Assembly: GCA_047601445.1 (NCBI GenBank)
Contig: JASGJH010000001.1
Span: 2,208,001 to 2,272,000 of the forward strand
Source: Myxococcales bacterium
Lineage (GTDB): Bacteria > Myxococcota_A > Polyangia > Polyangiales > DASUME01
Direction of reading: 5' to 3'
DNA length: 64,000 bases
A program made the position numbers and the translations under genes. The notes beneath the pieces are model-generated. The model had not been told where the DNA came from. It ran no database searches and worked only from the letters and a program-made list of their open reading frames with translations. The first letter of the stretch is position 1. Every line of letters starts with the position of its first letter. This document shows positions 17,686-61,012 of this stretch, piece by piece.

Positions 17686-18546
17686 ATGCCCGAGACTACG
17701 CGCTCGATGCCCGCAAGGTCGCGGTGCGCGCAAACCGCCTGCAAACCGGCCTGGCTCCAGAGCGCCTTCACCGCCTCGGCCTGCCGATAGCCGACCTCCA
17801 CCAGCAACATGCCTCCCGGCACGAGGTGGCGGCCCGCCGCGCGCGCGATGCGCCGGTAGAAGATTAGCGCGTCGCTCCCCGCGTCGAGCGCCATGCGCGG
17901 CTCGAAGTCACGCACATCGGGAGCAAGCTCAGCCATCTCGTCGGCCCCGATATAAGGCGGGTTCACCGTGATGCAGGCGAAACGTTCATGCTCGGCCACC
18001 GGGGCGAACAGGTCGCCCGCCCGGAACTCCATGCGCTCGGCCACGGCGTGCCGCTCGGCGTTGGTCCGGGCTACCGCGAGGGCTGACTCCGAGAGAATCG
18101 GTGACCACCACGCGCCGCGCGGGCGCTTCGGCCGCCAACGTGACACCGATGGCCCCGCTCCCCACGCACAGATCCAGCACAGGCTCGTCGCCCCCGCGGC
18201 CCTTCAGGAACTCGAGCGCACGCTCGACCAGCGTCTCCGTGTCGGGCCGTGGGATCAACACCGCGCGACTCACATTGAACGCGCGCCCGTAGAACTCGCG
18301 TTCCCCGAGCAGATAGGCCATCGGCTCGTGGTTGCGCCGACGCTCCACCATTTGGCGAATCTTCGACAGCTCGACGTCCATCAACGGGCGCTCGAGGTCG
18401 AGAAACAACGCGATGCGCTTCACGCCCAGCACGTGCGCCACGATCAGGTCGGCCTCGAGCCGGGCGCTCTCCACGCCGCGACGCTCGAAGTCCGACTGGA
18501 TCCAAGCGATCACGCGCCTGACGGTCCATGGCTCGCGGTCGGCCAT
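17667..18546 (-). CDS. prmC: Release factor glutamine methyltransferase, frameshifted at ~18096
   Basis: EPMAYLLGEREFY, VLIPRPDTE, LDLCVGSGAI in one frame and NPPY, FEPRMALDAG in the next; removing one base from GAATC 18095-18099 joins them. Confidence 0.9.
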
Positions 18547-18577
18547 GCTCAGCGCTCGCAATTCAAGGCGCCGGTAC

Positions 18578-19468
18578 TCACGGCTTCATGCGCACTTTCA
18601 TCTGCGGCCGCGGCGCGAGCCCAGCGTCCGCCAGCGCGGTCAACGCCAGCTTCTGCAGCTCGGGCTTCGTGTTCTTCTGGACGAAGGGCGCCAGCATGTT
18701 CGGGTCGAGCGCCACCAGCGAGTCGAGCGCCTTCTTGGCCAGGCCGCGGTTCTTGGTCGCCGAGTAGGTGTAGACCTGCGCGCGATACAGCAGCGGAGCG
18801 ATTTCGCCCGTCAACGCCGGGTCATCCGCCTTGTACTCGTCGAGCAGCTTCTTGGCATCCTCGTGCTTGCCGGTGCGCGCGAAGGCCTCCGCGATGACCG
18901 CTGCATACTTGGCCTTCACCTTGGCGTCGGGCTGACGATCCAGCTTGATCTCGTCCACCAGCGGGCGGGCCTCCTTGGTGCGGTTGAGGAACAGGTACAT
19001 CATGGCGAGCTGCGAGCGCACCTCGTCTTGCACCACCGTGGGGGCCTTCTCGATGTCGATGGCCTCGAGCGCCGCGAGCGCCTTCTGCGGGTCCTCCTGC
19101 GCCAGGAGCTGCGCCCGGGCCAGCGCCTTCATCGCATCCTTGTCGCCCCCCATGCTCAAGCGCTCGATGGCCTCGCGCCGTCCCGCGTCGCCCTGCGCAC
19201 CCTTCATGATGTCGAGGATCTCGCGCTGCTTTCGGGTCAGCCGGAACACGTAGATGCCGAGCCCGATGGCCGCCAGGGTCAGCGCGGCGACGACGCCGAC
19301 GCCCCAGTAGCCGATGGAGGGCGTCATCATCAGCGCCGTGATCCACAGCACGGCGAAGCCGCCCACGATGGCGCCCACCACCTTCCACTTGATGCCGGGC
19401 ATCTCCACTTGAGAGGCCGCCTGGGCGATATCGACTTTCTTGGGGGGACTGATTTTGGGCTTTGCCAC
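18578..19468 (-). CDS. Two-TM membrane protein with TPR-like helical domain
   Basis: Two hydrophobic segments followed by helical repeats; GC3-biased coding pattern; GTG start at 19468 chosen. Confidence 0.7.
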   Translation of the reverse strand: MAKPKISPPKKVDIAQAASQVEMPGIKWKVVGAIVGGFAVLWITALMMTPSIGYWGVGVVAALTLAAIGLGIYVFRLTRKQREILDIMKGAQGDAGRREAIERLSMGGDKDAMKALARAQLLAQEDPQKALAALEAIDIEKAPTVVQDEVRSQLAMMYLFLNRTKEARPLVDEIKLDRQPDAKVKAKYAAVIAEAFARTGKHEDAKKLLDEYKADDPALTGEIAPLLYRAQVYTYSATKNRGLAKKALDSLVALDPNMLAPFVQKNTKPELQKLALTALADAGLAPRPQMKVRMKP

Positions 19469-19800
19469 GGGCTCTTTACCTAGCTTGCACGCGCTCCCGG
19501 CCGCTCCGACAAAAGCAGGGGGAAACCTGGTGGTTTCGCGTTCGGGGGCTGGTGTAACCCTACCCCGCCGGCCCGGCAACAAGCCCAGCTGCGCACTGCG
19601 TCAAAGTGCCCCGGTGAGCGCTCGCCAGCGCCGAGGTTTGTGCGTCGGCACGCACATCGCCCCCCGGCGCAAAACCGCGCGGGCCGAAACCGTCTGACGG
19701 CCCGCAGAATGTTCGCCGGGCTGCCCAGGCGTGTACACTGACGCAGCGCGCCCCGCGCGCTTTTTCGACAGCCCTTCGGACGTAGGAGCCGGCCCCAACG

Positions 19801-21528
19801 ATGGCGCAGGACAATCGACTCGGTGAGCTACTGGTTCGTGAAAAGCTGATCAGCCTGACGCAGCTCCGGCAAGCCCAGGACGAGCAGAAAAAAGCCAACA
19901 CGACATTGAGCTACGCCCTGGCCAAGATGGGCATCATCTCGGACCGTGGAATCACGGACTTCCTGAGCCAGCAGTACCGCGTCGAGACCATCAACCTCGA
20001 CGAGTTCGACATCGACGAGGACGTGGTCAAGTTGGTGCCCCGCGAAGTCTGTCAGCGCCACGGCTTGATCCCGGTGTCACGCGCGGGCTCGTCGTTGATC
20101 GTCGCCATGAGCGACCCCTCGAACCTGCACGCCGTCGACGACATCAAGTTCCTCACCGGCTACAACGTGGAGCCCGTGGTGGCGCCCATCACCGCCATCG
20201 AGAAGGCGATCGCGTCGTTCTACGCCGTCCAGGAGAAGGTCGAGGAGATCAACTACGACCAGATCATGGAGGGCTTCGACGAGAACCAGATCGACTTCGA
20301 CTCCATGGAGAGTGAGGAGTCCAGCGTACTCGACCTCGAGCGCGCCTCGGAGGACGCCCCGGTGGTGCGCCTGTGCAACGCCATGTTGCTCAACGCAATC
20401 AAGAAGCGCGCCTCGGACATCCACATCGAGCCCTACGAAAAGCAAATGCGCGTGCGCTACCGCATCGACGGCGTGCTGCACGAGGAGATGCACCCGCCGC
20501 TCAAGCTCAAGAACGCCATCTCCTCGCGCCTCAAGATCATGGCCGCCCTGGACATCGCCGAGCGCCGCCTGCCGCAGGACGGTCGCATCAAGCTCAAGCT
20601 GGGCCGCGGCAAGGAGATGGACTTCCGCGTCTCCGTGATGCCCACGTTGTTCGGCGAAAAGATCTGCATGCGCCTGCTCGACAAGAGCAACCTGCAGCTC
20701 GACATGATGAAGCTCGGCTTCGAAGAGAAGCAGCTCAAGGACTTCAAGTGGGCCATCAACCAGCCCTACGGCATGGTGCTCGTCACGGGCCCGACGGGCT
20801 CGGGTAAGACCACCACGCTGTACTCCGCTCTGGCCGAGCTCAACACCGAAGACACCAACATCAGCACCGCCGAGGATCCCGTCGAGTACAACCTCTACGG
20901 CATCAACCAGTGCCAGATGCACGATGACATCGGGCTCAACTTCGCGGCCGCGCTGCGCTGCTTCCTGCGCCAGGATCCCGACATCATCATGGTGGGTGAG
21001 ATCCGCGACTTCGAGACCGCGGAAATCGCCATCAAGGCCGCGCTCACCGGCCACTTGGTGCTCTCCACGCTGCACACGAACGACGCGCCGAGCACCGTCT
21101 CGCGCATGCTCAACATGGGCGTCGAGCCCTTCCTGGTCACGGGCGCGCTCAACCTGGTGTTGGCGCAGCGCCTGGCGCGCAAGGTCTGCAACGACTGCAA
21201 GGCCCCCACCACCGTCGAGCCGCAGGCCCTGCGCGAGGTCGGCTTCACGGAGGATCAGATCAAGACGGCCCAGCTCGTGAAGGGCAAGGGTTGCTCCACC
21301 TGCGGCGGCAGCGGCTACAAGGGGCGCGTGGCGCTCTACGAAGTCATGCCCATGACCGACGCCCTCAAGGAGATGGTGCTCCAGGGCTGCTCCACGGCCG
21401 AGCTCAAGGAGCAGATGATCCGCGAAGGCATCTGGACCCTGCGCATGAGCGGTATCGACAAGGCCTGCAAGGGCGTCACCACGGTCGACGAGGTCACGAG
21501 CTGCACGGCCGCCGACCGCATCGGCTGA
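19801..21528 (+). CDS. pilB: Type IV-A pilus assembly ATPase PilB
   Basis: RLGELLV N-terminus, ASDIHIEP, DIAERRLPQDG, GPTGSGKTT, LRQDPDIIMVGEIRD, two CxxC pairs; AGGAG RBS. Confidence 0.95.
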   Translation: MAQDNRLGELLVREKLISLTQLRQAQDEQKKANTTLSYALAKMGIISDRGITDFLSQQYRVETINLDEFDIDEDVVKLVPREVCQRHGLIPVSRAGSSLIVAMSDPSNLHAVDDIKFLTGYNVEPVVAPITAIEKAIASFYAVQEKVEEINYDQIMEGFDENQIDFDSMESEESSVLDLERASEDAPVVRLCNAMLLNAIKKRASDIHIEPYEKQMRVRYRIDGVLHEEMHPPLKLKNAISSRLKIMAALDIAERRLPQDGRIKLKLGRGKEMDFRVSVMPTLFGEKICMRLLDKSNLQLDMMKLGFEEKQLKDFKWAINQPYGMVLVTGPTGSGKTTTLYSALAELNTEDTNISTAEDPVEYNLYGINQCQMHDDIGLNFAAALRCFLRQDPDIIMVGEIRDFETAEIAIKAALTGHLVLSTLHTNDAPSTVSRMLNMGVEPFLVTGALNLVLAQRLARKVCNDCKAPTTVEPQALREVGFTEDQIKTAQLVKGKGCSTCGGSGYKGRVALYEVMPMTDALKEMVLQGCSTAELKEQMIREGIWTLRMSGIDKACKGVTTVDEVTSCTAADRIG

Positions 21529-21735
21529 CCCGCGACCTTCCTCCGCTCCCACCCGTGGGCCAGAGCCAGCGGCCCTTCCCACCATCGCGGCCTCTCTCCA
21601 TCAGAGGGGCCGCCGGCGCCGCGCCTTGAGCGTCCTTGGCTGCCACCATCGCGGTCGGTCCCTGGGGCGCGGGGCAGCCCAAAGAGCGGCTGCGAATGCG
21701 TCTCCCCGGGCGTTACAACGGCCGTGGACCGGACC

Positions 21736-21863
21736 GATCTGTCCGCCAATGGGGGGTAGAACGTCGGCGGATCGTTCATCGATCGGCACCCAGATCGCGA
21801 CGGATCGCACTTGATCCAGCCCCGATCGCCGACCGACGGATCAAAAAAGAAGCACGCGTGATC
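21736..21863. repeat. Cluster of nine GATC sites, six of them helically phased
   Basis: GATC at 21736, 21770, 21781, 21793, 21803, 21813, 21824, 21839 and 21860. Confidence 0.8.
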
Positions 21864-21986: not shown

Positions 21987-22214
21987 ATGCGGATCAGCAA
22001 CAGCTTCTCGGAAGGCGAAATCCAGGTAATGGATTTCATCGTTCAGACCCTCCTGCGCGGCGGCTCGCCCACCATGGCGGTCCGGAACAAGGACTTCGCG
22101 TCCCTGTGCCGCAAAATCATCGCGATGAAAACGCGCGTGAACGAAAAGCAGATCGCCGACGATCTCGGCGCCCCGGCCCCCAAGGCCGAAGAGACCCTGC
22201 AGCAAGTGGTCTGA
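21987..22214 (+). CDS. Small hypothetical protein (75 aa)
   Basis: Clean GC3 codon pattern, amphipathic helical sequence, fills the pilB-pyrC gap. Confidence 0.7.
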   Translation: MRISNSFSEGEIQVMDFIVQTLLRGGSPTMAVRNKDFASLCRKIIAMKTRVNEKQIADDLGAPAPKAEETLQQVV

Positions 22215-25751: not shown

Positions 25752-25758
25752 TCGCCTT

Positions 25759-32348: not shown

Positions 32349-33312
32349 ATGGAGACCCTGATCCTCACGCATCGAGAGGTTCGCGCGCTGGCCGATATGC
32401 AGCTCGCCGTGGACGCCGTGGAAGGAGCCTTCCGCGCCTACGCCGAGGGCCACGCCCGGATGCCCTCCAAGGTGTACCTCGAGCTGCCGGAGTTCGACGG
32501 CGACTTTCGCGCCATGCCTTCGCTGCTCGGCGACTACGCAGGGGTCAAGTGGGTGAACGCCCATCCCTTCAATCAAGCGCGCCATGGCTTGCCCACGGTG
32601 ATGGGCACCTACGTGCTCAGCGATCCCAAGACGGCGTTCCCGCTCGCCATCATGGATGCCACCTTCCTCACCGCGTTGCGCACGGGCGCTGCGGCCGGCG
32701 TGGCCACCAAGCACCTCGCGAACCTACCGCTCACGCGCGTGGGGTTCGTGGGTTGCGGCGTGCAAGCACGGATGTTCCGAGACGCCCACCGCACACTCGG
32801 TAACTTCGAGATTCTTGGCAGCCGACTTGAACCAGAGCGCTGCAGAGCGCTTCGTGGCGGAGTCAGGCGGTGGTCGCGTGGTTAGCATCGAGGAAGCCGC
32901 GGGCTGTCCAGTGGTGTGCATCGCCACGCCGTCGCTGACACCTGTGTTGTTGCGCGCCTGGATCCGCCCCGGGACGCACATCAACGCCATGGGCGCCGAC
33001 GGCCCCGGGAAGCAAGAGCTCGATCCCCAGATCGTGCGCGAAGCACGGGTGGTGGTGGACGAGCCCGATCAGTCCATCCATGGGGGCGAACTCAACGTGC
33101 CGATCAGCCAGGGCCTGTTCGGCCCCGACATCATCGGGGCCACCTTGGGCGATGTGATCGCTGCCAAGGCACCCGGGCGACAGAGCCCGGAGCAAATCAC
33201 CATCTTCGACTCCACCGGCCTGGCCATCCAAGATGTGGCGGTGGCGCAGGCGGTGTACCAGCGTGCCAAGGAGCGGGGTGTAGGAAGCCGCGTCGCGCTC
33301 GTACCAACCTGA
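32349..33312 (+). CDS. Ornithine cyclodeaminase/mu-crystallin family (alanine dehydrogenase-like), frameshifted at ~32812
   Basis: GDFRAMP, GVKWVN, TALRTGAA, GCGVQA, then GTHINAMGAD and FDSTGLAIQD in the +1 frame. Confidence 0.88.
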
Positions 33313-36243: not shown

Positions 36244-37760
36244 TCAGAGCAGCTCGAGCACCGGCGTGCAGTTCCCCTGCTCGCAGACGAGGGCCGCTGA
36301 GCAGTCGAGAATCGTTGGCGCAACCGGGCGGCGCGGGCGGCGGTTCGGGCGGCGGTTCGGGAGGAGGCACGCACTTGTCGCCTCCGTCCGAGTCCATGAT
36401 GGCGCGGTCGTAGTGCATGTCGTGGGCCCCCGAGACCTCCACGTCATGAGCGAACAGGGATCCGTAGATGTCGTCTGCTCCGCCCACGTTCACGCGGGCA
36501 TGGGGCGCGTAGAGGTTGGCCGAGAACACCATGGCGCCCTTGATGTCGATGTCATCGCTGCCGGCCACGTAGAAGCGCAGCGCTGCCGGACGTGCCGTGG
36601 AGCCCACGGTGCCGGAGCCGCTCAGGCGCAGGTTTCCCGAGACGAAGACATCGAGCTCGCCCTCGTCGCCGACGTCCACGCCGAAGTCGCCTGCGACGTC
36701 GAGATCTCCTTCGATGAAGATGGCGGTGCGTCCGTGCGCGTGAATGGTGTTGGCAGCGCCGCTGATGGTGCTCGCCGTGAAAAAGAAGCGCCCGCAATCG
36801 AGGGTCAGCCCCCCGGTGCCGCTCATGTTCAGGGTGGCGTCCTGTCCAAGGCCGAGATCGGCGTTGTGGTTGTGGGCCTTGCCGTCCGCGACGATGGCCG
36901 CGATGTCGACGATGGAAGCCGCATCGCAGGCGCAGGGCGGCGCGACGCTGAAGCTCTCTTGCGTGTTCTTCTTTCCGCCCACGCTCAAGCTCGACGACAG
37001 TTGGTGGCCCGCGGTCTGATACAGGTCTCCGGTCACGCCGATCTCCGCGCCTGCCGCGGCGATGTCGTTGTTGACCCAGAGGTCGCGGCGGAACGAGATG
37101 GCAACGCCCGAGATGTCGAGCGCAGCGTTGGTGCGTAGGTTGCCGTCGATGCGCACCGAGCTGCCGCTGATCTCCAGCGTGCCGGTGCCGGATGCGATCA
37201 GGGAGCCGAAGATGCGCAGCCCGCCCTGGGTCGTGAAGTTGCCGTTGGTGCCGACGCTGGCGCCGCTCTTGTTGGTGTCCGCAGGATGGTCGGAGTCGAG
37301 CGCATCGATGACGAACGAGCCGGGCAATGCCAGAATCGCTGCAGCTACAGATGCCGAACTGGAAGATGCGCGAAGCGAGCCCGGTGGTGCAGACCTGATC
37401 GGTGACACCGCCGTCCGTGGTGCCGGGAACCCGGACCTCCACGGGCGCTCCTTCGCCGGCGCAGTAGGCCTCACGCGTCTCGAACCCGAGCACGATGCCG
37501 GAGTCCTCGACTACTTCGACCGAGCCGTCGCCCTGCGCGCCGGCATCGACGTCGAAGCCGGGGAGCTGAGCGTCCTGCTCCTTCTCTACGGCGGCGTCGG
37601 ACAGCGGAGTGCCCGCGTCTTCATCTGCGGGGCGATCTTTCAGTTGGGCGTTCGATCCCTTGGCACATCCAGCCTCGGATCCTGCAAGCGCGCATGACAC
37701 GAACAGCGTGGCCAACAGACTCAAACTCGACGAGTCCTTCTTACTAGTCAGCTTTCCCAT
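36244..37760 (-). CDS. Exported or lipoprotein with beta-helix-like G/D/V-rich repeats; two frameshifts (~37335, ~36311)
   Basis: Signal plus Cys, DAG linker, repeated I/V-x-G-D/N-L strands, NLYAPHA, Pro linker and Cys-rich tail; three frames join after deleting one base at each of two GAATC sites. Confidence 0.7.
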
Positions 37761-42667: not shown

Positions 42668-42685
42668 CCCGCACGCTTTAGGCGT

Positions 42686-45600
42686 TCACGCTCCGGCTTT
42701 CAAGCTGGTGAGCAGCGTACGCGCTTGGTTGTGGCTGGCCTGCTCGGCGACCGCGCGCTCGAGCATGGAGATCGCCTTGGGCGCGTCTCCCTGCTGGCGC
42801 GAGATATCGCCGAGGTAGAAGTAGACGTCCGCCTTGGTGATCGGAGCGTCCTTGTCGAGCTTCTGCAGCAACAAGCCACGGAAGGTCTTCTGTGCACGGT
42901 CGAGGTCGCCGCGCTTGTAGGCGAGCAGGCCGAGGTCGGCGAGTACGCCCACGTTGGTGAGGTCCACACGGTAGGCCGAGTCGAGCTCCTGCACGGCGCG
43001 CTCGAGGTTGTCCAGGCCCTGGTAGGCGCGCGCCAGCATGTGGTGGAACGTGGCGAGCTCCTTCACGCGACGACCACCGAACGAAGCGATGATCTTCTCG
43101 AGCACGGGGATCGCATCGGACTGCCGTCCAGCCGCAATGTAGAGCTCGCACAGCGGCACGAGCACGGCGCGGTCGTCCGGCACGAGCTGGCTCGCGCGCT
43201 CGAGGAACGTGGCGGCCATGGCCGGGTCGTTGAGCTTGCCGCGGTACAGCTCGGAGACACGGCGCAAGAGGGTCACCTTCTGCGCGGTGTCCGGCGTGCG
43301 CTCGACGTCCTCGGCCATGAGCTGCGCGAGAGACGCGTGGTCGCCGCGTCGCTCGTAGAGCTTGGCGAGGCGCTCGCGCGTCTCCTGCTCGCGGGTGCCC
43401 GCCGAGAGGGCGCGCTTGAGGGCCGCTTCGGCACGCTCCGGCGCGTTCAGCTTGCCTTCGGCCAGCTCGGCCAGCTGGTAACCCAGCTCGACCAGCTCGG
43501 CGCCTTCGACACGCGAGAGCAGGCGCTCGAAGATCTCCGCTGCGCGCTCGAGAATCGGACGCCATGTACAGCCGCGCGAGCGCCCGCAGGGCACCCACGT
43601 GCTGCGCGTCGCGCTCCAGCACACGCTCGTAGAACTCCGCAGCCCGCGTGCGATCTCCGAGCTTGTCTTCGATGACGGCACCGAGTCGCACCAGGGTGCT
43701 GAGCTCGCCCGCGTCGTCTCCGAGATCGCGGAAGCGGTCCGCGCGTGCCTCGAGAGCCTCCACGAGCTCCGGATAGCGACCACCGGACTCCAGCAAGCGC
43801 AGCAGCTCCTGCTGAGCCTGGGCGTGATCCGGGCTCTCCGACAGAACCTCGCGGAGCTCGTCGATGGCGCGGTTCGGATTCTTGAGCTGCTGCTCGGCGA
43901 CCAGGGCCAGGCCCACACGCGCCGTGCTGCGTTCCTCGGGGGTGGTGGCCACCTCGAGCCGACGCTCGAGGATGCGTACCAAGTCCTGCCACTGCTCACC
44001 GGAACGATAGAAGCGCTCGAGGGCATCCATCGAAACGGCGTCGTTGGGTTCGTCGTCGAGGTTCGCCAGGTGCAGCCGGATGGCGCCCTCGCGGTCCTCG
44101 AGCTGGTCGGCGCGTAGCACCGCCGCGCGATGGCGCAGGGTCTGGCGCACACTGGGGTCGGACTCGGCGTCGATGCGGCGATCGTAGAGCTGAGCCACCT
44201 TGCCCAACCTGCCTTCGGCCTCCTGCAGTCGGATCAGCTCGTCGAGCGCGTTGAGCGCGCTGCTGTCCATGCTGAGCACGCGCTCGTAGCAAGCTATGGC
44301 GCGCTCGCGGTCACCCGCGCCGCTCTCCGCGATGGCTGCGGCCTCGCACAGACGCAACACGGCCTGTCCGCGATCGCTGTCTCGCTCGGCCCACACGCTC
44401 AGCGCTTCCACGAGATCGCGGTGGCGGCTGCCCTCGCGCAGCAGGCTCACCAACTGCTCGTGGGCGGGCTCGTACTCGGGATCCATGTCGAGGGCGCGTC
44501 GCAAAGACTGCTCTGCGCGATCGGTGTCCCCCAGGCGCTCGCGGTACCAAGTGTAGCCGCGCATCCACAGGTCACGCTTGTCCATGCGGCTGACATCGCC
44601 GCCGCGCGTGGCCGTCTCGACGAGGCCCGACAGCACGTCGAAGCTGCCGGCCGCGGTCGCCACCCGCTCGATCTCGTCGAGCAGGCCGTGGTCGCTCGGA
44701 TCGGCCTCGAAGGCACGTCGCAGTGCCTGCGCGGCGCGCCCGAGGTCTCCGAGCTCGCGCTCGAACAAGCTCGCCAGGTCGGTCAGCAGCGAGACGCGCT
44801 CGGACTGGCTGCCTGCCTGGCGGATGCGGGTCTCGTAGAGCTCCGCCACGCGGTCGAGTTTGCCGGACTGGCGATAGACGCTGTCGAGGACATCGACGAC
44901 CTCCGAGGCCAGATCCGGGTTCAACAGCAGGCGTTCGAGGGCGCCGGTGGCGCGGGCGTCGGAGGGCTCGCGGTCGATGACCTCCCGATACGCGGAGAGC
45001 GCACCGCGCGGGTCTTCGAAGCGGCTCTCGCGCAGCTCGCCGAGCCGCACGAGAAGCTCGACGGCGCCAGCGTTGTCAGCCTGCACCACACGACGCTCGA
45101 GGATATCGGCGAGATCCTCGAAGCGCTCTGTGGCCAGGTACAGGCGATCGAGGTCGGCCAGCACCGTCTCGTCGTCCCCGGCACGCTCCAGCGCGCGCTC
45201 GTTGGCTTCGATGGCACGAGCCACATCGTTGAGCTGCTGCTCCGCGATGCGCGCCACGCGACGGTACAGGCCCTGCGCGATGAGCACGTCGGAAGTCGAG
45301 CCCGCGCGGCGCGCGAACACGTCGGCCGTGCGCCCCCAGGCGTCGAGGGCACCAGCCACGCGCTCCACCTCGCCAGCGAGATTCTCGTCGTCGGCATCCG
45401 ACAACAGGGCTTCGCACAGGGTATCGAACGCCGCCTGCTGATCGTTGCGACCGCGCTCGTGAATCTCCGCCAGGCGCAGCAGGCGGGCCTGCTTTTCGCT
45501 CGGCTCGGACATCGAGCTGACGCCCCGCGCAAGCAACGTGGCGAGGTCGTCCCAGCGCTGGTGATCGCGCAAGGTGGGCTCGAGGATCTCCTCGACTCGC

Positions 45601-48600
45601 GGCCGCTGATCGGACTGCTCGCCGATGCGCAAGAGCGCCTTGATGCTCGGCTCGTGCGCCGGATCGAGGGAGAGCGCCTCGCGATAGGCCTCGATGGCCT
45701 CGTCGAACTCGTTCTGGCGTTCGTCGTGGACCTGACCGATGCGGAAGAACAGGGCCAACCGCTCCGCGGTCGCGGTCTCCACATCGAGCTGACGGCGCAG
45801 CGTATCGAGCAGCTCGGGCCACGAGGACTCCTCCTCGTAAAGCTTGGCGAGCGAACGAATGGCCTCCATGTGGGTGGGCTCTTCGTCGAGCACGCGCACG
45901 TAGGCCTCGATGGCCTCGGTGGTGCGCTCCAGCTTCTCGGCCAGCACGCGCCCGAGCCGCAGGTTCACGTCGAGACGCTCCTCGGTGGAGGTACCGAGCT
46001 CCGAGCGCCGACGCAGTACGTCGGAGAGCGCCTGGAAGTCCTCGGTGCGCGTGAAGAGCCCGTCGAGGGCCTCCAGGCTGATCACGTCATCGTCGGTCTC
46101 TTCGAGCGCCGCGCGGTAGGCCTCGATGGCCTGCGGCACGTCGCCGATCAGCTCGTCGAGCACCGAACCGGCTCGGCGCCAGAGCTCGCTGCGCTCCACC
46201 GAGTCGTAGGAGCGCTCGACCTTGCGCTTGAACAAGTTCACGAGGCCGCGCCAGTCGCCGACCATGGTGAGCAACGCCTCGAGCTGATCGAACGCCGCCG
46301 GATCCTCCGAGTCGTACTGGATCAGCCGCTCGTAGGCCGTGATCGACGAGCGCGGGTCACCGCGACGCTCGTCGTGCGTGCGTGCCACGGCGGCCAACAA
46401 CGACGCCTTGACCTGGTTGTCGGCGGTCGCCTCGATGGCCTCCTCGAAGGCCTGCACCAGGGCATCCCAGTCGGCCAGCTCCGCCGCCAGGCGCTCGAGC
46501 TCCGAGCGCGCGTGATCGTCGGCCGGATCGGTCACGAGGGTACGACGCCAGGCTGCCATGGCCTCGCGCGGCGACTTGCCGTGCGCCTCGTGCAGGCGCG
46601 CGATTTCGCCGTACAGGCGCGAGCGCTCGGCGAGATCGCTCTCGATGCCGACCAGCTTCTCGTAGAGCCAGATCTGCCGACTCCACTCGCCAGCCTGCGC
46701 GTACAGGGGCTCGAGGATCTCCGAGACCCTGCGCAGCAGCTCGGGACGCGCCGCGAAGCGCTCGAGCGCCCCGCGTGCCTCGCGATTGTTCGGCTCGAGG
46801 CGCGTGACGTCCTCGTGGGTGTCGATGGCCAGATTGACGTCGTCGAGGTGCTCCTCGTAGAGCTTGGCCAGGCGCAGCTTCAGCTGGGCGGCGTTGGCCG
46901 AGTCCGACGCGCGGTCGATCTGGTATTGCAAGTGCTCGGCGAGTGCCGACCAGGCCTGCGTCTCAGCCAACAAGCGATCGAGGGCTGCCACCGACACGCT
47001 GTCGCCGGCGACCACCTCGAGCAACTCCTGATGCACGCGGATGGCGACGTCGGACTCACGCAGCTCGAGCTCGAGCACCTTGGCCAGCTTGTGCAGGCAA
47101 GCCACGCGGCGCTTGTCGTCTCCCGCCACGTCGGCCTGGGCACGGTAGAACGCGCGCAGGTCCTCGCTGGCGCGACGTCGCAGCAGGACGTCCTCGAGTG
47201 CGTCGGCCACACTGAGCGCCGTCGGGTCCACCGCCAGCGCCTTCTGGTAGAGCGCGGAGGAGCGCTCCAGGTTGCGCCCGAACTGATCGCGGATCTGGGC
47301 CGCGCTCACGGCGAGCCTGATGCCCGTCTCGTCCTCGATGCCGACCTCGTCGAGATAGAGTTCGTAGACCTCGGCCACGCGCTCCTGCCGGCCGAGCACG
47401 CGCGACAACCGTGCGAGCGCGTCCCAGGCCTGCACGTCGGCGGGCTCCACGCGGAACAGGCGCGCGTAGGTTTCGAGAGCGGTCTCGAGGTCCTCGAGCT
47501 GCACCTCGTGCAGCTGCGCGAGGCGCAGCAGGAGCTCCTTCTTGCGCTCCGGCGATTCCTCCGCCTCGAGCTGAGCCTCGAGAGCCCGCGTGAGCTCCGG
47601 CCACTTGCTCTTGCGCAGATACACTGGCTCGAGCTGGGCCGCGGCCTGCGCCTTGTAGCGCTGGTCGTCCATCAAGGCCTCGAGGGACTTGGTGGTTTCC
47701 TCGTGCAGCGGCGAGCGATCGAGCACGTCGCGGTAGAGGTCCAGCGCGCGCTCCACGTCGTCGAGTCGCGTGCGATAGACCTCGGCCAGCCGGTAGCGCA
47801 CCACCAGGGCGTCCCCGATGGCGAGCTCCATCTGGCGCTCGTACATCTCGGACAGGTCCTCCCAGCGTTCGGCACGCTGGTAGAGCGCGGCCAGGCCGTC
47901 GAACACCTCGCGCGACGGACTCTCCTCGAGCACCTGCTCGTAGGCCTCGATGGCCGCCGTGACGTCGTCCAGCTTGTACGCGGACAGCTCCGCCTGCCGC
48001 AGCAGCAGAGCCGTGCGCTCCTTGGTGTCTCCTGCGAGCTCGGTCTTCTTGCGCAGGATGTTCAGGAGACCGCGGTGATCGTCGGCCGCCTGATGCAACG
48101 CCTCGAGCGCATCGAGCGCCGGGCGATGATCCGGACGCAGCGCCAAGGCCTGCTCGAAGTACTCGCGAGCGACGCTGCGATCGGAAAGCTGATCGCGACT
48201 GACGCCTGCAGCGCGCATCAGCACCAAGACGCGCAGCTCCTCGTCGGACACGTCGGGCGCGATCTCGCGCAGCAAGTTGCCGTAGGCTTCGAAGCGCCCA
48301 GACGCCCTGGCCAGGCGATCGAGCTCTTCGAGCAACGCGCCGAGCTCGTCGTCGCCGAGGGCGCCTTGCACGGCACGGGCGATCAGCGAGTAGGCGCGAC
48401 CTGCGTCGGACAGGCCACGTTCTGCGCTGGCCGCGGCGCGGCGCAACGACTCGAGGCGCTCGCGCGCATCGTCGGACTCAGCGACCACCTCGAGCGCGTG
48501 GATCAGGCGCTCGTGATCGCCGCGCGCGTCGTAGTGCGGCACCAGCACGCGCGCCGCATCGACGCGCGTGGTGCCGCCGGAGGCCACCATCTCGTTGAGG

Positions 48601-51600
48601 GCGCCGATGGTCCCATCGTGTCCGGGACGTTCCTCGAGCACCGCACGGTACGCGTCCAGCGCGGATTCCGGCGCGTTGGTGCGCTTGCGCATCAACTCGG
48701 CCGAGCGGAAGCGGACCTCGGCGCGATCCTGCGGATCGGTGGCCAGCTCGAGCTCGATCTGCAGCGTGTCGAGCAGCTCCTGGTACTTCTCGGATGCTTC
48801 GTACACCCGCTCCAGGGCCACCACGGTCTCGCGATCATTGCCGAAGCGGCTGAGCACCTCGGTGTAGGCGTCGATGGCCTTCTCGCGGTCGTGAAGCTTG
48901 GTCTCATAGACCTCACCGACGCGACGCGCGAGCACCCTGCCCTCGTGCTCGTTGAGGGCCACGGCCTCGCGCTTTTGCAGGATGCCGATCAGGTTGGGCC
49001 ACTCGGCGCGCGACTCATAGAGCCGCTCGAGCGCCAGCATGGCCACCAGGTCGGCGGGATCGAGGTCGAGGCGTTCCACGTAGGCCGCCACGGCGCGCGG
49101 CACATCCGACAGGGCGCCTTCGCTCAGCTCGGCCAATCGCCCGAGCAGCGCCTTCTTGATCTCGACGTCGTTCTCGAAGGTGATCTGCAGCCGCAGGGCC
49201 TCGGCGAGGTTCGCGTGGTCGTCCCGCACGAGGTGCAAGCGCTCGAGGGCGCGTGCGGCCGGCAGCACGATCTCGGCGTTCTCGGCGTCGGAGGCAATCA
49301 GGCGCGTATAGGCGTCGATGGCCTTCTCGGCGTTGCCCACGAGCACGTCCCAGAGCTCGGCCAACTCGGCCAAGATCTCGGTGCGTACGCTCGGGATCTC
49401 CACGCGCTTGAGCGAGTTCTCGAGCAGCGAGGCGCGATCGGCGAGCGCTCCGACCAGAGCCGACAGACGTGCGAGTTCGCGGCGCGCGAGCACGTCGGTG
49501 GGATCGGTCTCGACCGCCTTGGCGAAGGAACGCAGCGCCTGCGTGGCGTCACGCAGCTCGCGCTCGTGGAGCTCGCCCAGGCGCATCAGCGTGCTGACAC
49601 GGGCCCCAGGCTCGCTGATCTCCTCGAGCTGCACCTCGAGGATGCGGGCCAGCTCGTTGTGCGCCCCTTGGCGCGTGTAGAGCGGTTCGAGCAGGCCGGC
49701 GATGCGTTGCCGCTGGGTGCGCTCGTGGAGCAGGCGCTCGAGGGCCTCCTGCGCGCGCAAGTGCGTCGGTTGCTCCTCCAACACCTGAGCGTGCTGATCC
49801 ACAGCCAGGGCCGGTTCCTTGAGCTTCAGCTCGTAGAGCTCACCGATGCGGAAGGTGAGCTCGATGGCCTCTTTGCCCATCGCCTCGTTGCGGTCGTACT
49901 CGAGCAGCGAGACCAGCTCGCGGTAGCGCTCCGCACGCGTGTACAAGCGCTCGAGCGCGCGGCGCGAGGTCGAGTGCGTGGGGTCGAGTTCGAGCACCTC
50001 CTGATAGGAGGTGATGGCCATTTCCACGTCGTCGAGGATCTCTTCGTGCAGAAAGCAGACTTGCAGCAGCAAATCGAGCTTTTGCGGCACGTCGACCGTG
50101 TTGGCGATGCGGTCGCGGTAGAGCTTCTTGAGCTCTTCCCAGCGCTCTGTGTTGGTGTACAGGTCGCGCAGGGCTTCGTAGGCGCCCTCGGCCAGCGGGT
50201 CGTGGGCTAGCACGCGCAAGTGGAAGGGCTCGGCGCGCTCCGGCTGTCCGAGCACCGAGTCGTAGATGCGCGCGGTGCGCTCGCTCAGCGCCGAGGTCTG
50301 TTCGGCCGGCAATGCCGCCATCTCGATCACGGTCGCGAAGGCGACGGCGAGCTCCTCGTGAGTGCGCGCCTGATCCGCCATGCTCGTGATGCGATCCCAC
50401 AACTCCACGTTCTGCGGGTTGTCCAGGAAGGCCGACTCCAGCGTGGCATAGGCACTCTTGGGATCGCCGAGTGTGCCGGAGATCTCCGCCAAGCGCAGCT
50501 TGAGGTCGCGCTTCTCGCCGTCACTCTTGCTGGCTTCGAGGCGCTTCTTGAGCAGAGCCTGCAGCTTGTCCAGCTTGCTGGTGCGCTCGTACACGGGCTC
50601 GAGCAGGCGCCCGATGCGCAGGGCCTCGCTCGGGTTGGCGGCGGCCAGCAGCTCGAGGGCTTCGACGGCACGGCCCTCGGTGGGCTCGAGCTCGAGCACA
50701 CGCGAGAATGCCTCGATGGCGCGGTTCGAATCCGCGAGCTCTCCGGCCGCGAGCTTGCCCAGGCGCAGCGTGAGCTCCACCTGCTCCTTGGCCTGCGACG
50801 CGAGCTCGATGCGCTTGTCGAGGATGCCGGCCAGTTCCTGGCTGCGGTTCTCGGCCGACAGCAACCGGTCGAGGGTGGCCAGGGTCGGGGCGTCGCTCGG
50901 ACGCAGCTCGTGCATCGCCTGGTAGCTCTCGATGGCGCCACTCAGGTCGCGCAAGAGCTCCTCGTCCACCACTGCAAGGGCGTGGCGCCGTTCGAAGCGC
51001 GCGTCATCGCTCGCGGCGTGCTTGAGCAGCTTCACGAACAGCGCGCGCAGATCCTTGTGGCGCGCGAGGCCGCGATAAATGCGCTCCAGCGTGGCGCTGA
51101 CATCGGCGTCGCTGGGCTTGGCCTCGAGCACCTTCTCGAGCTCGTGCGCGGCTTCCTCGGGGCGCTTCAGCTTGTCGAGGCAGAGCTGTGCGACTCGGCG
51201 GCGCAAGGCCACCGACTCCTCGCCCCCCTCGGCGTCAGCGCGCGTAACGTAGATGCGCGCCAGCCGCTCGTGGGCGGACGCGAGGTCGGCAGCGGACTCC
51301 AGGCGCGCGCGCACTTCGGCGTCGTCCGGCGCCAGCGCGTAGGCCGAAGAGGCATGGGAGAAGGCACGCTCACCGTCGCGCAACTTGCCCTGGAAAAGCT
51401 CGACCAAGCGCAGGTGGAGCGCCCGGGCGGTGTCGATGTCGCCCTCGGCCACCTGCTTGAGCAAGATCTCGTTGAGCTGGGCCACGCGCGGCCACTTCTC
51501 GTCCTTCTCGTAGAGCGGCAATAGGGCGCGCACCGCGCGGGTATTCTCGGGATCGACCCCGAGCACGCGCTCGTAGCTGCGGAAGGCGCGCGCGGGCTCA

Positions 51601-53885
51601 CCGAGCTCGCGTTCGTAGACCTCCGCGGCGCGGAAGCTGAGGGTCTTCTTGAGCTCGACGTCCGAGGTCTTGTCTGCGGCCGTTCCCAGCACGTCGACGA
51701 AGCCGTCCCAGTCGTGGGCCTCGGCGTAGAGCGACTCCACGCTCGCGAAGTCGCCGGCGGCCAAGTAGGCCTCGCGCAAGGTGCGCAAGGCACGGCCGTT
51801 CTTGGCGTCCACCTCGAGCACGCGCTTCCAGGCCGCCGCCGCGCGCACCGGATCGTTGGTGCGCTCCGCGTGCAGCGTACCGAGCCGCGTGAGCAGCTTG
51901 ATCTTGGCTTGCACGTCGCTCGTGTCGCTCAGGCGACGTTCGAGCGCGTCCGCCAGCGCGTCCCAGTCCTTGGCGCGTTCTGCCAACTTCTCGAGCGCGT
52001 CGAGTGCCTTCGCCGAGTTCGGCTCCAGCTCCAGCACGCGGCGCCACAGGTTGATGGCTTCACCGTACTCGTGCAGGCGCTCGCCGGCGATGTTGGCCAG
52101 CTCCACCAACAAGGCCAGCTTGGTGGCCTTGTCCGAGGCGAGCTCCTCCTCCTTGAGCAGCACGCCGAACAACTGCTTCCAGGCGCGCTTCTTCCCGTAG
52201 ATCTCCTTCAACAGCGCGAGTGCCTCGCGGTTGTTCGAGTCGATGGCGATGACCTGCTCGAGCGGACCCGTGGCCTGGTTGTAATTCGAGAAGTGCTCGA
52301 TCCACAGCTTGGCGACGCGCAGATAGAGCGCCACCTTGCGCGCCGGATCCGTGAGGACATCGGCCTCGCGCGTGAGCACTGGGATGAGGTCGTTCCAGCG
52401 CCCGAGGGACTCGTAGGTCTTGGCGAGCTCGTCGGTGGCTTCGCGGTTCTTGGGGTCGAGCTGGAGAATCAGGTTGTAGGTGCCGAGCACCATCGCATCG
52501 AGCTTCAGCTCGTCGCGATAGATAGCGAGCAGCTCCTTGAGGTGGATAAGTCGCCCGGCGCGATCGTCGGCGGGCAACGCATCTAGCTCTCCACGCAGCA
52601 GCTCCACCAGGGCGTTCCACTTGCCCGAACGGCGGTACAGCTGCTTGAGCGAGGCCAACGCCTCGGCGTGGGTGGGCTCGCTGCGCAGCACGTGCTTGAA
52701 GGCATCGATGGCACGTTCGGCGGCCTGGGAGTCGTTCTGAGCTAGGCGCGCGATCTCGAGCGACAGCCGCAGCTTGTCCTGCTCTGAGCCAAGTCGGCGC
52801 TGTGCATCCGAGAGCACCGCGAGCAGCTTGGAGGTCTCCCCGCTGGCGGTGTACTGCTCGCGGTAGAAGTCGAGCATCACGGGTTGGGCAGCATCGGCCT
52901 TGCGCAGGCGGGCGAAGTAAGGCTCGGCGCGGTCGGCGCGCTTGAGCATGCGCCAGTGCACCATGCCGATCTGCAGCAGAATTCCCTGCTCGGCGTCGGC
53001 CTTGAGCTGACGCGCGCGCAGCGCGTCTTCGTACAGCGCCACCAGGTGGTCCCACAGCTCGCGCTCGGTGAAGTGAGCGACCAAGAAGCCCAACGACTCC
53101 TCGTGGGCCGGCAGCAGCTCGAGCACGCGCTCGTAGCAGGCAGCGGCGCGGTCGTTGTCGCTCAGGCGCTGCGCCAACACGCGCGCCGCGGAGAGGTGCA
53201 TCCCGAGCTGATCGTCACGGCCGGTGACGTGCTCCGCGGACGACAGCAACACCTCGCCCAACTCCTTCCACTTCTCGCGTTCGCGCAGGGTGATGGCGAA
53301 CAGGCGCGCCGCGCGCGCATGGGCGGGATCGATGGACAGGGCCTCACGGAACAACCGATCGGTGTCCTTGCTCTTCCCCTTCTTCTTGTACTGCCAGAGG
53401 ATCGAGGCCGAACGCACCATCAAGGACGTCTTGAGCGCCGCGTCGCTGGCTCCCTCGGCCTGCTCCGCGAAGTGCTGCGCGATTTGCTGCCAGCGCTCGG
53501 AGACTTGAGCGATCTGCTCGAGCGCGCGCTGCACCTCTTCTTCGCCGGGACGCAGCTCGAGGGCCTTTTCGTAGGCGAACTTGGCGCCCTCGTCGTCCAT
53601 CAGGTCTTCACGCCGCAGGCGCCCGAGCTCACGCCACAGCACCGCCGCAAAGTCGGGGTCCGAAAGCACGAGTCGGAGTTCGAACTCGATTAGCTTCGCT
53701 GCCGCGAAGGCTTCACCACGCACCTCGTGGTTGCGCCGGGCGAACTCCAGGAGGCGCACGGGGTCTTCACCCAGCCTCTTAGGGTCACCACTCGAGAGCG
53801 CCTCATCGAGGCCTTGAACAGCAGATTGATCCCACGGGTCGTCTTGCAGGGCCGCGAGGTAATTCGCAACGGTTAGCTCGGCCAT
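42686..53885 (-). CDS. Giant TPR-repeat protein (~3730 aa), AgmK-like; frameshift at ~43554
   Basis: Dozens of A..AY..VL..DP....AL..LE.LY....W..L repeats; the C-terminal TPRs continue in the 42686..44152 frame. Confidence 0.85.
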
Positions 53886-54061
53886 CGTCTCCTCGATGCC
53901 AAGGCATAGCGGGCCGCTCCGAACCCACGCGCACCACCCATGCGAGCGCGGCCCGGAATGGCCAAAAATCATTGAAGTTTAGATGATTTGGATCGCGCTC
54001 ATGCCGGGGCCAGGGGGCATCCTACAAACCCCCTCCCTAGCTGGCAAGGGCGAAGGGCGGC

Positions 54062-55836: not shown

Positions 55837-55851
55837 GACAAGGATTCATAG

Positions 55852-56427: not shown

Positions 56428-57735
56428 ATTCGCCCATGAATGCGGTGAGCACGTTGATCATCGGCTCGACGTCCGCGGTGGCCGCCATTTCACGGGCGCT
56501 GTGCATGCTGAGCATCGGGTTGCCCACGTCGACGGTACGGATGCCCAGGCGTGCCGCCGTGATGGGGCCGATGGTGCTGCCGCAGCCTAGGTCCGAGCGC
56601 ACCACGAAGCGCTGGGTTCGCGCGTCCACGGAGCGCGCCAGTTGCTCGAACAGCGCCCAGGTCTCACCGTCCGTGCCGTACCCCTGATTGGAGTTGCTCT
56701 TGATCACGGGTCCCTGTCCGAGCAGGGGCCGATGACCCGGCTCGTGGCGGTCGGCGTAGTTCGGGTGGACTCCGTGGGCCATGTCGCTCGAGACCAGGTA
56801 AGACCGCGCGATCGCCCGCGCCAGCCGGGTCTCACTAAAGGGCCCATGGGCCTCGAGCACGCGGGAAAGCAAAGAACGGACGAACAGCGAGCCCGCTCCA
56901 CGCGCGCTCTGACTGCCGACTTCCTCGTGGTCGAACAGGATGATGCCCCGAGTCTGAGGTTTGGCCCCCTTCGCCTGCAGCAGCGCCCACAACGCTGCAT
57001 GGCACCCCGCCAAGTTGTCGATGCGTGGCGCGAACAGGAATTCGCCGCCCAGCCCGCCGATCTGCGACGGCTCGCAGGCGAACAGGCTCAGGTCCCAGCC
57101 CAGCACTTGCTCGGGCGTAACCTTGGCGCCGTCGAGCGCCGTCGCCAGTACATCGCGCAACGAAAACCCGGTGCGGTCGCCCAAGCCACACAGAGGCACC
57201 AGATGCTGTTGGGCGTTGAGGCTCAAGCTATCGTTGACCCCGCGATTGAGGTGGATGGCGAGGTTCGGGATGCGCAGCAAGGCATCCGGCAAGCGCACCA
57301 AGTGGCTCTCACAAGCTTGAGCAGCCCCCCTTTGCGCCCCACCACGACGCGCCCTGCAATCGACAAATCGCGATCGAGCCACGTGCTGTAGAGGGCGCCA
57401 CCATAGACCTCCACGCCGAGCTGCCGGTGTCCTTCTTTCACGACCTCGGGCTGGGGCTTGATGCGCAACGTGGGGGAGTCCGTGTGGGCTCCGATCAAGC
57501 GAAACCCGGCCTCCTCGGGCGCCTCATTGCCCACCTCGAAGGCCGCTAGACTCGCATCCCCACGCACCACGAAGAAGCGCGCCCCCGGCTCGAGCTCCCA
57601 AGCATCGCCCTCCGACAGCTGTCGGTAGCCGGCGCTCGTTAAACGTCGGGCGGTCTCGCTGACGGCGTGAAAGGGCGAGGGACTCGCGTCGATGTAGGCG
57701 AGCAGATCTTTGGCAAGAGTGGTGTTGGTGTCCAC
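56426..57735 (-). CDS. M18 family (aspartyl) aminopeptidase, frameshifted at a homopolymer ~57325
   Basis: SPSPFHAV, GAHTDSP, WLDRDLSIAG, then RIDNL, FDHEEVGS, SDMAHGVHPNY, LSMHSARE. Confidence 0.9.
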
Positions 57736-57758
57736 GCCAAGAGACTAAACCAGCCGGA

Positions 57759-58399: not shown

Positions 58400-58410
58400 C
58401 GGTCCGTCTT

Positions 58411-59652
58411 TCACTGATGCTTCGCCAAGATCAGCGAAGCGTTGGTGCCACCAAAGCCAAACGAGTTGGAGAGCACGTACTTGAGCGCACGCGGGCGCGA
58501 CTCGTGGGGCACCAGGTCGATGTCCCGGGCCTCTTCGTCGGGCTCGTCGAGATTGATGGTGGGAGGCACCACGCCCTCGTGCAGCGCCAGGGTGCACAGC
58601 AGCGCTTCGAGGCCGCCGGCCGCTCCGAGCAAATGGCCCGTCATGGACTTGGTGCTGGAGACCCACAACTTCGAGCTCGCGTGATCGCCGAACACCTGAC
58701 GGATCGCTTTGAGCTCGAGCAGGTCGCCCACCGGCGTGGACGTACCGTGGGCGTTCACGTAGTCGATCTGGTCGGCGTTGAGCTTGGCGTCTTGAAGCGC
58801 AGCCTGCATGGCGCGCTGAGCCCCCTCACCTTCCGGAGCCGGTTGCGTCAGGTGATAGGCGTCGGCCGAGGCACCGTAGCCGATGACCTCCGCATAGATG
58901 GTGGCCCCGCGCTTGACGGCGTGCTCGCGCTCCTCGAGGAAAAGCAGGCCGGCACCCTCGGCGATCACGAAGCCATCTCGCCCCGCGTCCCAGGGCCGAC
59001 TCGCCTTCTCGGGCGCGTCGTTGCGCTTGCTGACGGCGCGCATGGCAGCGAAACCTGCCACACCGAGGGGCGTCACCGCGGCCTCCGCGCCACCCGCAAC
59101 GCAGGCGTCGATCTCCCCGCGGACGATGGTGCGAAACGCCTCGCCGATGGCATGCGCCCCCGACGAGCACGCGCTGGTCGTGGTGTAGCTGACGCCCTTG
59201 AGGCCGTACTTCATGGAGATCTGGCCGGGAGCCAGGTTGGAGATGGTGGCCGGAATGAAATAGGGGCTGATGCGATTGGGCCCCTTCTCAGCCAACACCT
59301 TGCACATGTTCTCGATGTAGCCGAGGCCTCCGATGCCTACACCCACGAGGGTCCCCGTGCGCAGCTTGATCGGGTCGTCCTCGCCGATGCCCGCCGTGCG
59401 CATGGTCTCCTCGGCCGCGCCCATGGCGAGGTGGATGAAGCGGTCCATCGAGCGGATGTCGCGCTTGGGGACGAAGCGCTCGGCGTTGAACCCCTTGCAT
59501 TCGCCGGCAATTCTCGAGGCGTAGTCGGTGACATCGAAGAGGCTGATCGGCGCGATGCCGCTCTTGCCAGCCTTGATGGAGCCCCAGGTTGTCGTGCTGT
59601 CGAGTCCACAGGGGCTCACTGCACCGATGCCCGTAATAACCACCCTACGCAT
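58411..59652 (-). CDS. fabF: 3-oxoacyl-ACP synthase II
   Basis: RRVVITG, SACSSG, VNAHGTST, SSTKSMTGHLLGAAG, SNSFGFGGTN. Confidence 0.97.
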   Translation of the reverse strand: MRRVVITGIGAVSPCGLDSTTTWGSIKAGKSGIAPISLFDVTDYASRIAGECKGFNAERFVPKRDIRSMDRFIHLAMGAAEETMRTAGIGEDDPIKLRTGTLVGVGIGGLGYIENMCKVLAEKGPNRISPYFIPATISNLAPGQISMKYGLKGVSYTTTSACSSGAHAIGEAFRTIVRGEIDACVAGGAEAAVTPLGVAGFAAMRAVSKRNDAPEKASRPWDAGRDGFVIAEGAGLLFLEEREHAVKRGATIYAEVIGYGASADAYHLTQPAPEGEGAQRAMQAALQDAKLNADQIDYVNAHGTSTPVGDLLELKAIRQVFGDHASSKLWVSSTKSMTGHLLGAAGGLEALLCTLALHEGVVPPTINLDEPDEEARDIDLVPHESRPRALKYVLSNSFGFGGTNASLILAKHQ

Positions 59653-59751
59653 TGTTCAGCCCCCGCACGTCGCCACCCCTTGAGCCGGTACGGCGCGCGC
59701 ATCAGAAAAGGGAGTGACACAGCCCCCTTGACCACGCCAGCTGCCATAACG

Positions 59752-59777
59752 AAAAGGGGCACCCGATGGGCGCCCCT
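59752..59777 (-). terminator. Rho-independent terminator downstream of acpP
   Basis: Minus strand reads AGGGGCGCCC-ATC-GGGTGCCCC-TTTT, within the acpP-fabF gap. Confidence 0.65.
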
Positions 59778-59899
59778 CGAACATGTTGCCAGTGACAACG
59801 TTGCGGACCGTTCGGGCGCCGCTCGCCGACCTGCTCCTGCAGAGCCTGACCAATCGCGGCGTGATGCCGAACTACGTGCCGCTCACCGGCACGCCGGCT

Positions 59900-60136
59900 T
59901 CACTTGCCCTTGTGCTCTTGGATGTAGGAGATGGCGTCTCCCACGGTGCGGATCTTCTCGGTGTCTTCGTCGGGAATGTCGATCTCGAACTGCTCCTCGA
60001 ACGCGAGCACGAGCTCGACGATGGCAAGGGAGTCGGCTCCCAAATCATCGATGAACGAAGCGGCCTCTTTGACTTCGGCCAAGTCGACATCGAGCTGCTG
60101 GGAGATGATCTCCTTAACCTTGTCGGCGATTTCCAT
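59900..60136 (-). CDS. acpP: Acyl carrier protein
   Basis: DLGADSL phosphopantetheine motif, [20 protein letters not shown]. Confidence 0.97.
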
Positions 60137-60264
60137 CCGTTCCTCCGAAACCTCAAGGGCGGCCTCGACCGCCCTACTTTTGCTCGCGCGTAGAACTCCG
60201 CGCTCGACATCTGGGTGGCCGGAAAAGCCGGCCCTTCAAAAATGGCCGGGAAGACCGGCCTCCA

Positions 60265-61012
60265 TCACACGTACATTCCGCCGTTGACCCGTAGCACCTG
60301 ACCAGTGATGTAGCTCGCTTCTTCGGACGCGAGAAACAACACAGCTGCCGCTACTTCCTCGGGGCGTCCCACGCGCCCGAGCGGCGTCTGATCGACGATG
60401 CCCTTCTGCACCGCCTCCGGGAGCGAAGACGTCATGTCGGTATCGATGAAGCCCGGCGCAACCACGTTGACGGTGATTCCGCGCGATGCGTACTCCCGAG
60501 CCAGTGTCTTCGTCAACCCGATTATGCCCGCCTTGGAAGCCGAGTAAACCGCCTGTCCGGGGTTGCCCGACTCGGCCACCACACTCGACAGGTTGATGAT
60601 GCGACCCTGCTTGGCCTTCATCATCGTGCGGATGGCTGCCTTGGCGCAGTACAGGGGACCGGCGACGTTGATGGCGAACGTGCGGTCAATCTCCTCCTGC
60701 TTCACCCGCAGGAGGAATCTGATCCATGGCAATGCCGGCGTTGTTGACCAGGATGTCCACCCGCTTGTGAGCGTCGGTGATCTCCTTGAACGCCTGCTGC
60801 ACGGCCTCTTCGCTGGCCACATCGAATTGCTTGAGCTCGCCGCGACCACCGGCCTGGAGGATCTCATCGAGCACCTCCCGGGCCTTGGCCTCGTTGCCCG
60901 CGTAGTTCACCACCACATGGGCGCCTGCGCGCGCGAGCACGACGGATATCGCACGACCGATGCCGCGCGAACCGCCCGTGACGACCGCCACCTTCCCGTC
61001 GAGCCGAAACAT
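60265..61012 (-). CDS. fabG: 3-oxoacyl-ACP reductase, frameshifted at ~60717
   Basis: VTGGSRGIG, LVNNAGI, then INLSSVV, YSASKAG, VAPGFIDTDM, VNGGM. Confidence 0.93.

Follow-up and report, generated by a model that had tools for sequence, protein, structure and literature searches.

Why are so many reading frames interrupted at one short word in this stretch of a myxobacterial chromosome, and are the genes concerned broken in the cell or only in the assembly? The stretch, called the window here, comprises 64,000 nucleotides (G000:C1:2208001-2272000) of a 9.50-Mb species-representative genome (G000), which is assembled as one contig with 66% GC and is rated 98.68% complete. A preliminary description of the window listed nine frameshifts and attributed six of them to a surplus base within GATC, read as GAATC or GATTC. 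We consider it highly probable that the surplus bases are systematic long-read consensus errors at GATC caused by Dam-type N6-adenine methylation, and the evidence for this reading and against its rivals is set out below.

Frameshifts in the window and the genes that they split

First, the six words were located in the window, and all of them lay where they had been placed (Table 1). Reading frames were then followed with a forward-backward frame HMM that used a periodic codon model trained on G000 and was supplied with no motif information. The HMM recovered eight of the nine frameshifts and missed the one in fabG at 60715. The three frameshifts other than those at the six words had been described as not lying at GATC, which was correct for the shift near 13100, at a GAAATT word, and for that near 57325, beside a C run; the shift near 12428 was unassignable, with a GATC (12437-12440) inside its interval. 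The deletion-type shift at 57309-57335 interrupts an M18 aminopeptidase gene next to six consecutive C; the two parts of the gene adjoin on the profile (5-138 and 137-427), and a homopolymer error is likely.

Table 1. Words at which reading frames shift in the window, and other features of G000 and its relatives
Feature	Position	Strand	Gene or role	Comparison or basis
GAATC with one surplus base, on the + strand	18095..18099	(-)	splits prmC (~17670-18561, minus strand)	9/9 congeners without the base
GATTC with one surplus base	32810..32814	(+)	splits ornithine cyclodeaminase/alanine dehydrogenase family gene (32349-33312)	
GAATC, surplus base inferred	36309..36313	(-)	exported DUF7305-containing gene, second break	frame HMM
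GAATC, surplus base inferred	37333..37337	(-)	same exported DUF7305-containing gene, first break	frame HMM
GAATC with surplus base	43552..43556	(-)	near the 3' end of the giant TPR gene (42678-53972)	
GAATC with surplus base	60715..60719	(-)	splits fabG (60265-61012), which lies upstream of fabF	
GAAATT, insertion-type shift	13103..13108	(+)	second enriched word	posterior 0.79 and 0.52 in two runs
Second D12-class gene (L015)	G000 553916-554638		candidate for the AATT word	
N6_N4_Mtase gene (L011)	G000 8797729-8798445		candidate for the AATT word	
Eroded MutL C-terminal nuclease motifs	L154-L162 (G046, G053, G016, G036, G023, G050, G012, G034, G014)			

The split genes were compared with protein profiles and with congeners. 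The halves of prmC abut on TIGR03534 (profile positions 1-119, then 120-252), and those of fabG abut on TIGR01830 (1-90, then 91-239). In the alignment of fabG all seven congeners were one base shorter at the motif, and five of these read GATC there. All nine congeners compared at prmC were shorter at the motif by 1 or 4 bases, four of them having a further codon gap. The one congener compared for the cyclodeaminase (G003) was one base shorter and aligned across the site only after the base had been removed, and a congener protein likewise crossed the 43552 site of the giant TPR gene only once the base had been removed. No homolog spanning 36309 or 37333 in the exported protein was found among the loci compared, and the surplus bases there are accordingly placed by the HMM only (posterior 0.78-0.90).

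Surplus bases at GATC throughout the genome

In the whole of G000 the frame HMM called 344 one-base insertions and 100 deletions. AGAATC/GATTCT lay within 20 nt of 152 of the 344 insertions, against 1.9 expected, and no comparable motif enrichment was found within 20 nt of the 100 deletion-type shifts. When the insertions were assigned by interval, 195 fell to GAATC/GATTC (11.9 expected), 49 to GAGATC (12.6 expected), 12 to SAAATTS (1.1 expected) and 7 to TCGATC, leaving 81 others. Thus the tabulation of indels by motif that had been proposed as a check gave enrichment at GATC-derived words. Error piles up on GATC across the genome, far beyond chance. The hits to GAATC were evenly distributed over the length of the chromosome and over both strands.

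To determine motif rates, the prior was raised equally for test words and control words. The data showed that 199 of 9936 GAATC sites were called, in comparison with 0-0.12% for 14 control words, and two later runs gave 212 and 198 calls. The sensitivity of the HMM was estimated by simulation, in which 315 of 400 insertions were recovered (79%); after correction for this, the GAATC form occurs at about 0.9% of AGATC contexts and about 0.5% of all GATC sites. Plain k-mer counts were uninformative as a signal: observed/expected was 1.11 for AGAATC and 0.95 for GATC, and the latter value indicates that GATC is not avoided.

Anatomy of the error

We analyzed the base 5' of the 199 hits, and found 154 AGAATC, 36 CGAATC, 8 GGAATC and 1 TGAATC. 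The hit rate fell from 0.71% in AGATC to 0.09% in CGATC, 0.03% in GGATC and below 0.01% in TGATC. Every repaired site in the window had been reported to carry AGATC on one strand; the strong 5' A bias was borne out genome-wide, whereas A as a part of the motif was not, as 21 of the 199 hits had AGATC on neither strand and about 4 would be expected from the control rates. AGATC as the true motif was therefore ruled out in favor of GATC with a context bias, GATC itself being the most likely modified target. The flanks were strongly biased only at -1 and more weakly at -3, and a longer or bipartite motif was accordingly rejected as well. The dependence on the flanks resembles a context effect of the base caller.

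A second form of the error is an extra G before AGATC, which was called at 53 of 9626 GAGATC sites (46 in another run; controls at most 0.06%). A third, small class consists of 13 of 1585 GAAATT/CAAATT sites (10 in another run), all followed by G or C, and includes the window site at 13103-13108. These SAAATTS insertions likely point to another modified motif that includes AATT. There was no support for an extra C in TCGATC as a further form of the error; it was called at 4 of 11448 sites, as in the controls, and its interval count was 7 against 14.9 expected.

Partial modification of GATC had been suggested, as an alternative to a low error rate, to account for the small number of misread sites. 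It is not needed, as the rate follows the flanking bases steeply. The same observation bears on partial Dnd-type phosphorothioation at GATC as the cause of the errors. A hit rate of only about 0.5% at GATC would agree with a modification described as partial (12-20%) in the portion of PMC8919816 available to us. However, the low rate tracks the flanking sequence, and no dndC or dndD match was found in G000, a one-contig genome of 98.68% completeness, in a search in which no control genome exceeded the cut-off either. We regard phosphorothioation as the least credible of the explanations considered here, with a very small chance of being correct. Of the two causes that had been offered, methylation gained a candidate gene by homology, described below, and Dnd modification lost ground.

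Probable integrity of the affected genes

The 199 hits were next compared with homologs. A homolog spanned the site only after removal of one base in 68 cases, only as the site stands in 1, either way in 7 and neither way in 123. In contrast, at 200 control GAATC sites a homolog spanned the site only after removal in none and only as it stands in 90. With other genomes alone as the comparison, 46 of the 278 hits of all three classes were spanned after removal, 1 of these was also spanned as is, and none was spanned only as is. Once one base was removed, 159 of the 199 hits were free of stops for about 60 codons on each side, and there is therefore little sign of gene decay. The claim that the genes are intact was thus upheld by the congeners without the surplus base (fabG and prmC) and by the genome-wide homologs, and in the cell these genes are in all probability unbroken.

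These data bear on the possibility that a GATC-directed process, for example the mis-repair of nicks, recently introduced the insertions as real mutations, which would leave the genes broken in the cell. A homolog of the GATC nickase MutH is indeed present in G000, which lends this possibility some substance. However, prmC and fabG, the latter upstream of fabF, are among the genes hit, the hits show little decay, fragmented congeners with Dam and MutH lack the signature, and the two other genomes that bear it are rich in indels of every kind (both below). We judge real mutation to be very unlikely, and return to consensus error at a methylated GATC.

The signature in other assemblies

Other assemblies were scanned as samples of 100-280 kb. 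The same signature was found in G021 (30 contigs; 13 of 185 GAATC sites) and in G010 (40 contigs; 19 of 138). Both belong to the same order as G000, in families other than its own, and both are Dam-positive, few-contig and error-rich, with general indel rates per 100 kb of 20 and 50. In seven fragmented congeners, of which six are Dam-positive, only 1 of 315 sites was hit. The recurrence in two error-rich assemblies and the absence from fragmented congeners agree with the systematic error that had been proposed.

Five Dam-positive few-contig assemblies (G051, G284, G197, G274 and G210), which are nearly free of indels, gave 2 of 694 GAATC sites; the signature therefore depends on the assembly. 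Five Dam-negative few-contig assemblies gave 1 of 1815, and these too are nearly indel-free and thus too clean to serve as a control. The error-rich assembly G054 has no dam match and gave 1 of 55, but it has MutH, is 91% complete and may only be missing dam. Two other Dam-negative genomes gave 1 of 72 (G056) and 0 of 11 (G040). Together these data make long-read consensus error the most likely origin of the surplus bases, and the assemblies that bear the signature are presumably nanopore-only.

Errors of this class are already known. The available text of PMC12392509 and PMC11610603 describes nanopore errors at methylated GATC, and that of bioRxiv 10.64898/2026.01.14.699587 describes substitutions concentrated at such methylated motifs. 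The errors in G000 resemble those modification-induced Oxford Nanopore errors in their concentration at GATC and in that only some copies of the motif are hit. However, the portions available to us of the three reports describe few errors per genome or mainly substitutions, whereas about 250 +1 insertions were detected in G000, in two defined forms (GAATC, and AGATC preceded by an extra G) and with a strong preference for A on the 5' side. A literature search by title found no paper describing this exact insertion signature at GATC.

A Dam-family methylase encoded outside the window

The responsible enzyme had been stated not to be encoded in the window. In agreement with this, an intact Dam-family gene was found at G000 593325-594137, adjoining folB and an ABC transporter. 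Its product scored 290.9 bits against TIGR00571 (cut-off 114.85), and its best PDB matches, in which FNGLYR/NVP and DPPY align, were M.DpnII 1 and E. coli Dam. It matches E. coli Dam (PDB 2G1P), M.DpnII 1/DpnM (PDB 2DPM), TIGR00571 and PF02086 over its full length and shares their catalytic DPPY. It scores higher with DpnM (228 bits) than with E. coli Dam (152 bits) and falls below the equivalog cut-off for enteric Dam (188 against 441). The residues that align with K9, N120, L122, R124 and P134 of E. coli Dam, which we take to be recognition-loop residues, are kept.

Profile searches of G000 gave no match to a DpnII-type nuclease, and the only match to the MutH/Sau3AI domain is a single-domain protein. 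The Dam of G000 therefore appears, by these DpnII and MutH/Sau3AI-domain profiles, to be an orphan with no cognate GATC restriction enzyme. SeqA had no match in G000 either, unlike in E. coli. The Dam family is present in 55 of the 61 genomes of relatives and in 159 of 251 genomes of a phylum sample.

At least three further methylase-like genes are present in G000, so that the assignment of the enzyme rests on homology; N6_Mtase and C5 methylase profiles gave no match. The same error mechanism could accordingly act on a GATC that is marked otherwise, for example by N4-cytosine methylation or by another methylase-like gene, and the N6_N4_Mtase gene and the second D12-class gene of Table 1, together with two weaker N6_N4 matches, would be available for this. 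However, the Dam gene is the only one with a full-length match to GATC-specific 6mA enzymes, it is kept across the order, the doubled base is an A, and the AATT word offers the other methylases something else to account for. A different mark on GATC is therefore improbable, though less so than real mutation or phosphorothioation. One partial N6_N4 methylase match (L012, G000:C1:173582-176761) adjoins a 468-aa ORF, and is possibly part of a defence island.

With N6-adenine methylation by Dam as the preferred reading, the orphan enzyme would methylate both strands of almost all GATC sites. Indirect signs of such methylation in vivo are the error footprint and the conserved GATC array described below. 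A pore signal altered in this way would sometimes be read as a doubled A (GAATC) or as an extra G before AGATC, and the misreading would survive into the consensus at the corrected rates given above for GATC sites and AGATC contexts.

GATC clusters

Nine GATC occur within about 130 bp of non-coding sequence in the window (21736-21863), with intervals of 10-12 bp between six of these; the Poisson P per window, calculated with the non-coding rate, is 3e-9. The array lies upstream of an ORF of 75 aa at 21987-22214 (+). Its GATC positions are kept in the congeners G007, G008, G001 and G009, and in many relatives the region is rich in GATC. The 75-aa protein was found in 44 of 61 genomes and had no NCBIfam match at 1e-25. 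The array is possibly a methylation-sensitive promoter. It is unlikely to be a replication origin: the turning points of the cumulative GC skew lie at 5.78 and 1.12 Mb, and no cluster of DnaA boxes was detected. Another group of GATC, also non-coding, lies outside the window at G000:C1:2080670-2080920, with 10 copies in 250 bp and a higher AT content than the genome.

MutH, MutL and mismatch repair

Dam and MutH are known families, and Dam, MutH and MutL are all encoded in G000. The MutH homolog (L096:1345-2010; G000:C1:4784312-4784977) is a single-domain protein of 221 aa, and its alignment to E. coli MutH runs from end to end (E 1.6e-49). It was compared with the reference structures PDB 1AZO and 2AOQ and the profiles NF003458 and TIGR02248, and scored just below both curated cut-offs (233.7 against 243, and 194.2 against 229.9). 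The D...ExK motif and the equivalent of Tyr212 are kept, the motif assignments following the consulted portion of PMC3848065.

The distribution of MutH was also investigated. MutH was found in 48 of 61 relatives; nine relatives have Dam without MutH, and the four genomes of one family (f16) have neither. Of the 251 genomes of the phylum sample, 108 had a MutH match, 89 of them at 174 bits or more and 41 over the TIGR02248 cut-off; about 89 carry a full-length homolog. In family f33 (for example G065, G076 and G081) MutH was found in 18 of 24 genomes and a Dam-family match in 1 of 24 at E 1e-30. Family f54 (for example G110, G118 and G285) has Dam together with weak, partial MutH-like matches of 26-54 bits, from either a divergent MutH or a related nuclease. 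A donor or direction of transfer for MutH was sought in a 45-row tree, in which gammaproteobacterial rows sit among the myxobacterial ones with weak support (80/58), and no donor is claimed.

Sixty genomes had a MutL match, and the C-terminus of MutL was read in 50 of them: the 30 with the highest scores, the 9 unsplit ones with the lowest scores and 11 others. The DQHA-x2-E motif was present in G000 and in 40 further genomes; all nine genomes that have lost it carry MutH and Dam (Table 1). Among the genomes read, the nuclease motif was lost in 9 of 37 with MutH in comparison with 0 of 13 without it. In G045 DQHA is kept and CPHGRP is eroded; an apparent loss of the motif in G054 was an artefact of a split gene. 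In a FastTree tree of the MutL ATPase domain (48 rows, poor deep support) the nine fell in four places. By this tree the nuclease motif appears to have been lost two to four separate times, kin among the nine not being independent.

The repair genes of G000 resemble the E. coli MutS-MutL-MutH system in the single-domain MutH with its motifs and in the presence of Dam and MutL. Unlike E. coli-type MutL, which lacks both motifs according to the consulted portion of PMC3848065, the MutL of G000 keeps DQHA-x2-E and CPHGRP, and the host is a myxobacterium. The same portion of that paper gives the MutL motif as missing only in gamma-proteobacteria that use MutH, and the available part of PMC11840563 (2025) limits methyl-directed mismatch repair to a subset of gamma-proteobacteria. 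Our literature search of titles and abstract openings found no paper on a myxobacterial MutH, and reviews of MutH distribution may mention it.

The single-domain MutH would read the GATC mark and so distinguish the newly made strand during mismatch repair, and the mark may be kept across the order because MutH reads it. On balance we favor the view, with moderate confidence, that much of Myxococcota, and the order of G000 above all, runs an E. coli-type Dam/MutH methyl-directed mismatch repair, which would then exist in a second phylum and be in transition. Most members would keep MutH together with a nuclease-competent MutL, and several would have lost the MutL nuclease separately. The errors would then be an in vivo footprint of an active methylase, and GATC may also be a regulatory mark, as at the phased array in the window.

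Significance

About 280 false frameshifts were detected in G000, affecting perhaps 4% of its approximately 6,900 coding segments, and make genes look dead; other error-rich assemblies have the same defect. Such errors can also be mined, as methylation motifs are readable from assemblies alone. The artefact itself is of modest interest, and the interesting part is a Dam/MutH repair kit outside the Gammaproteobacteria. The footprint is, in our somewhat guarded estimate, an indirect sign of an active Dam in a lineage that carries MutH, and thus of a second home for methyl-directed repair. If this is true, Dam and MutH across the myxobacterial order, with loss of the MutL nuclease only in carriers of MutH, would allow the origin of methyl-directed repair to be tested in a second lineage that has living intermediates.
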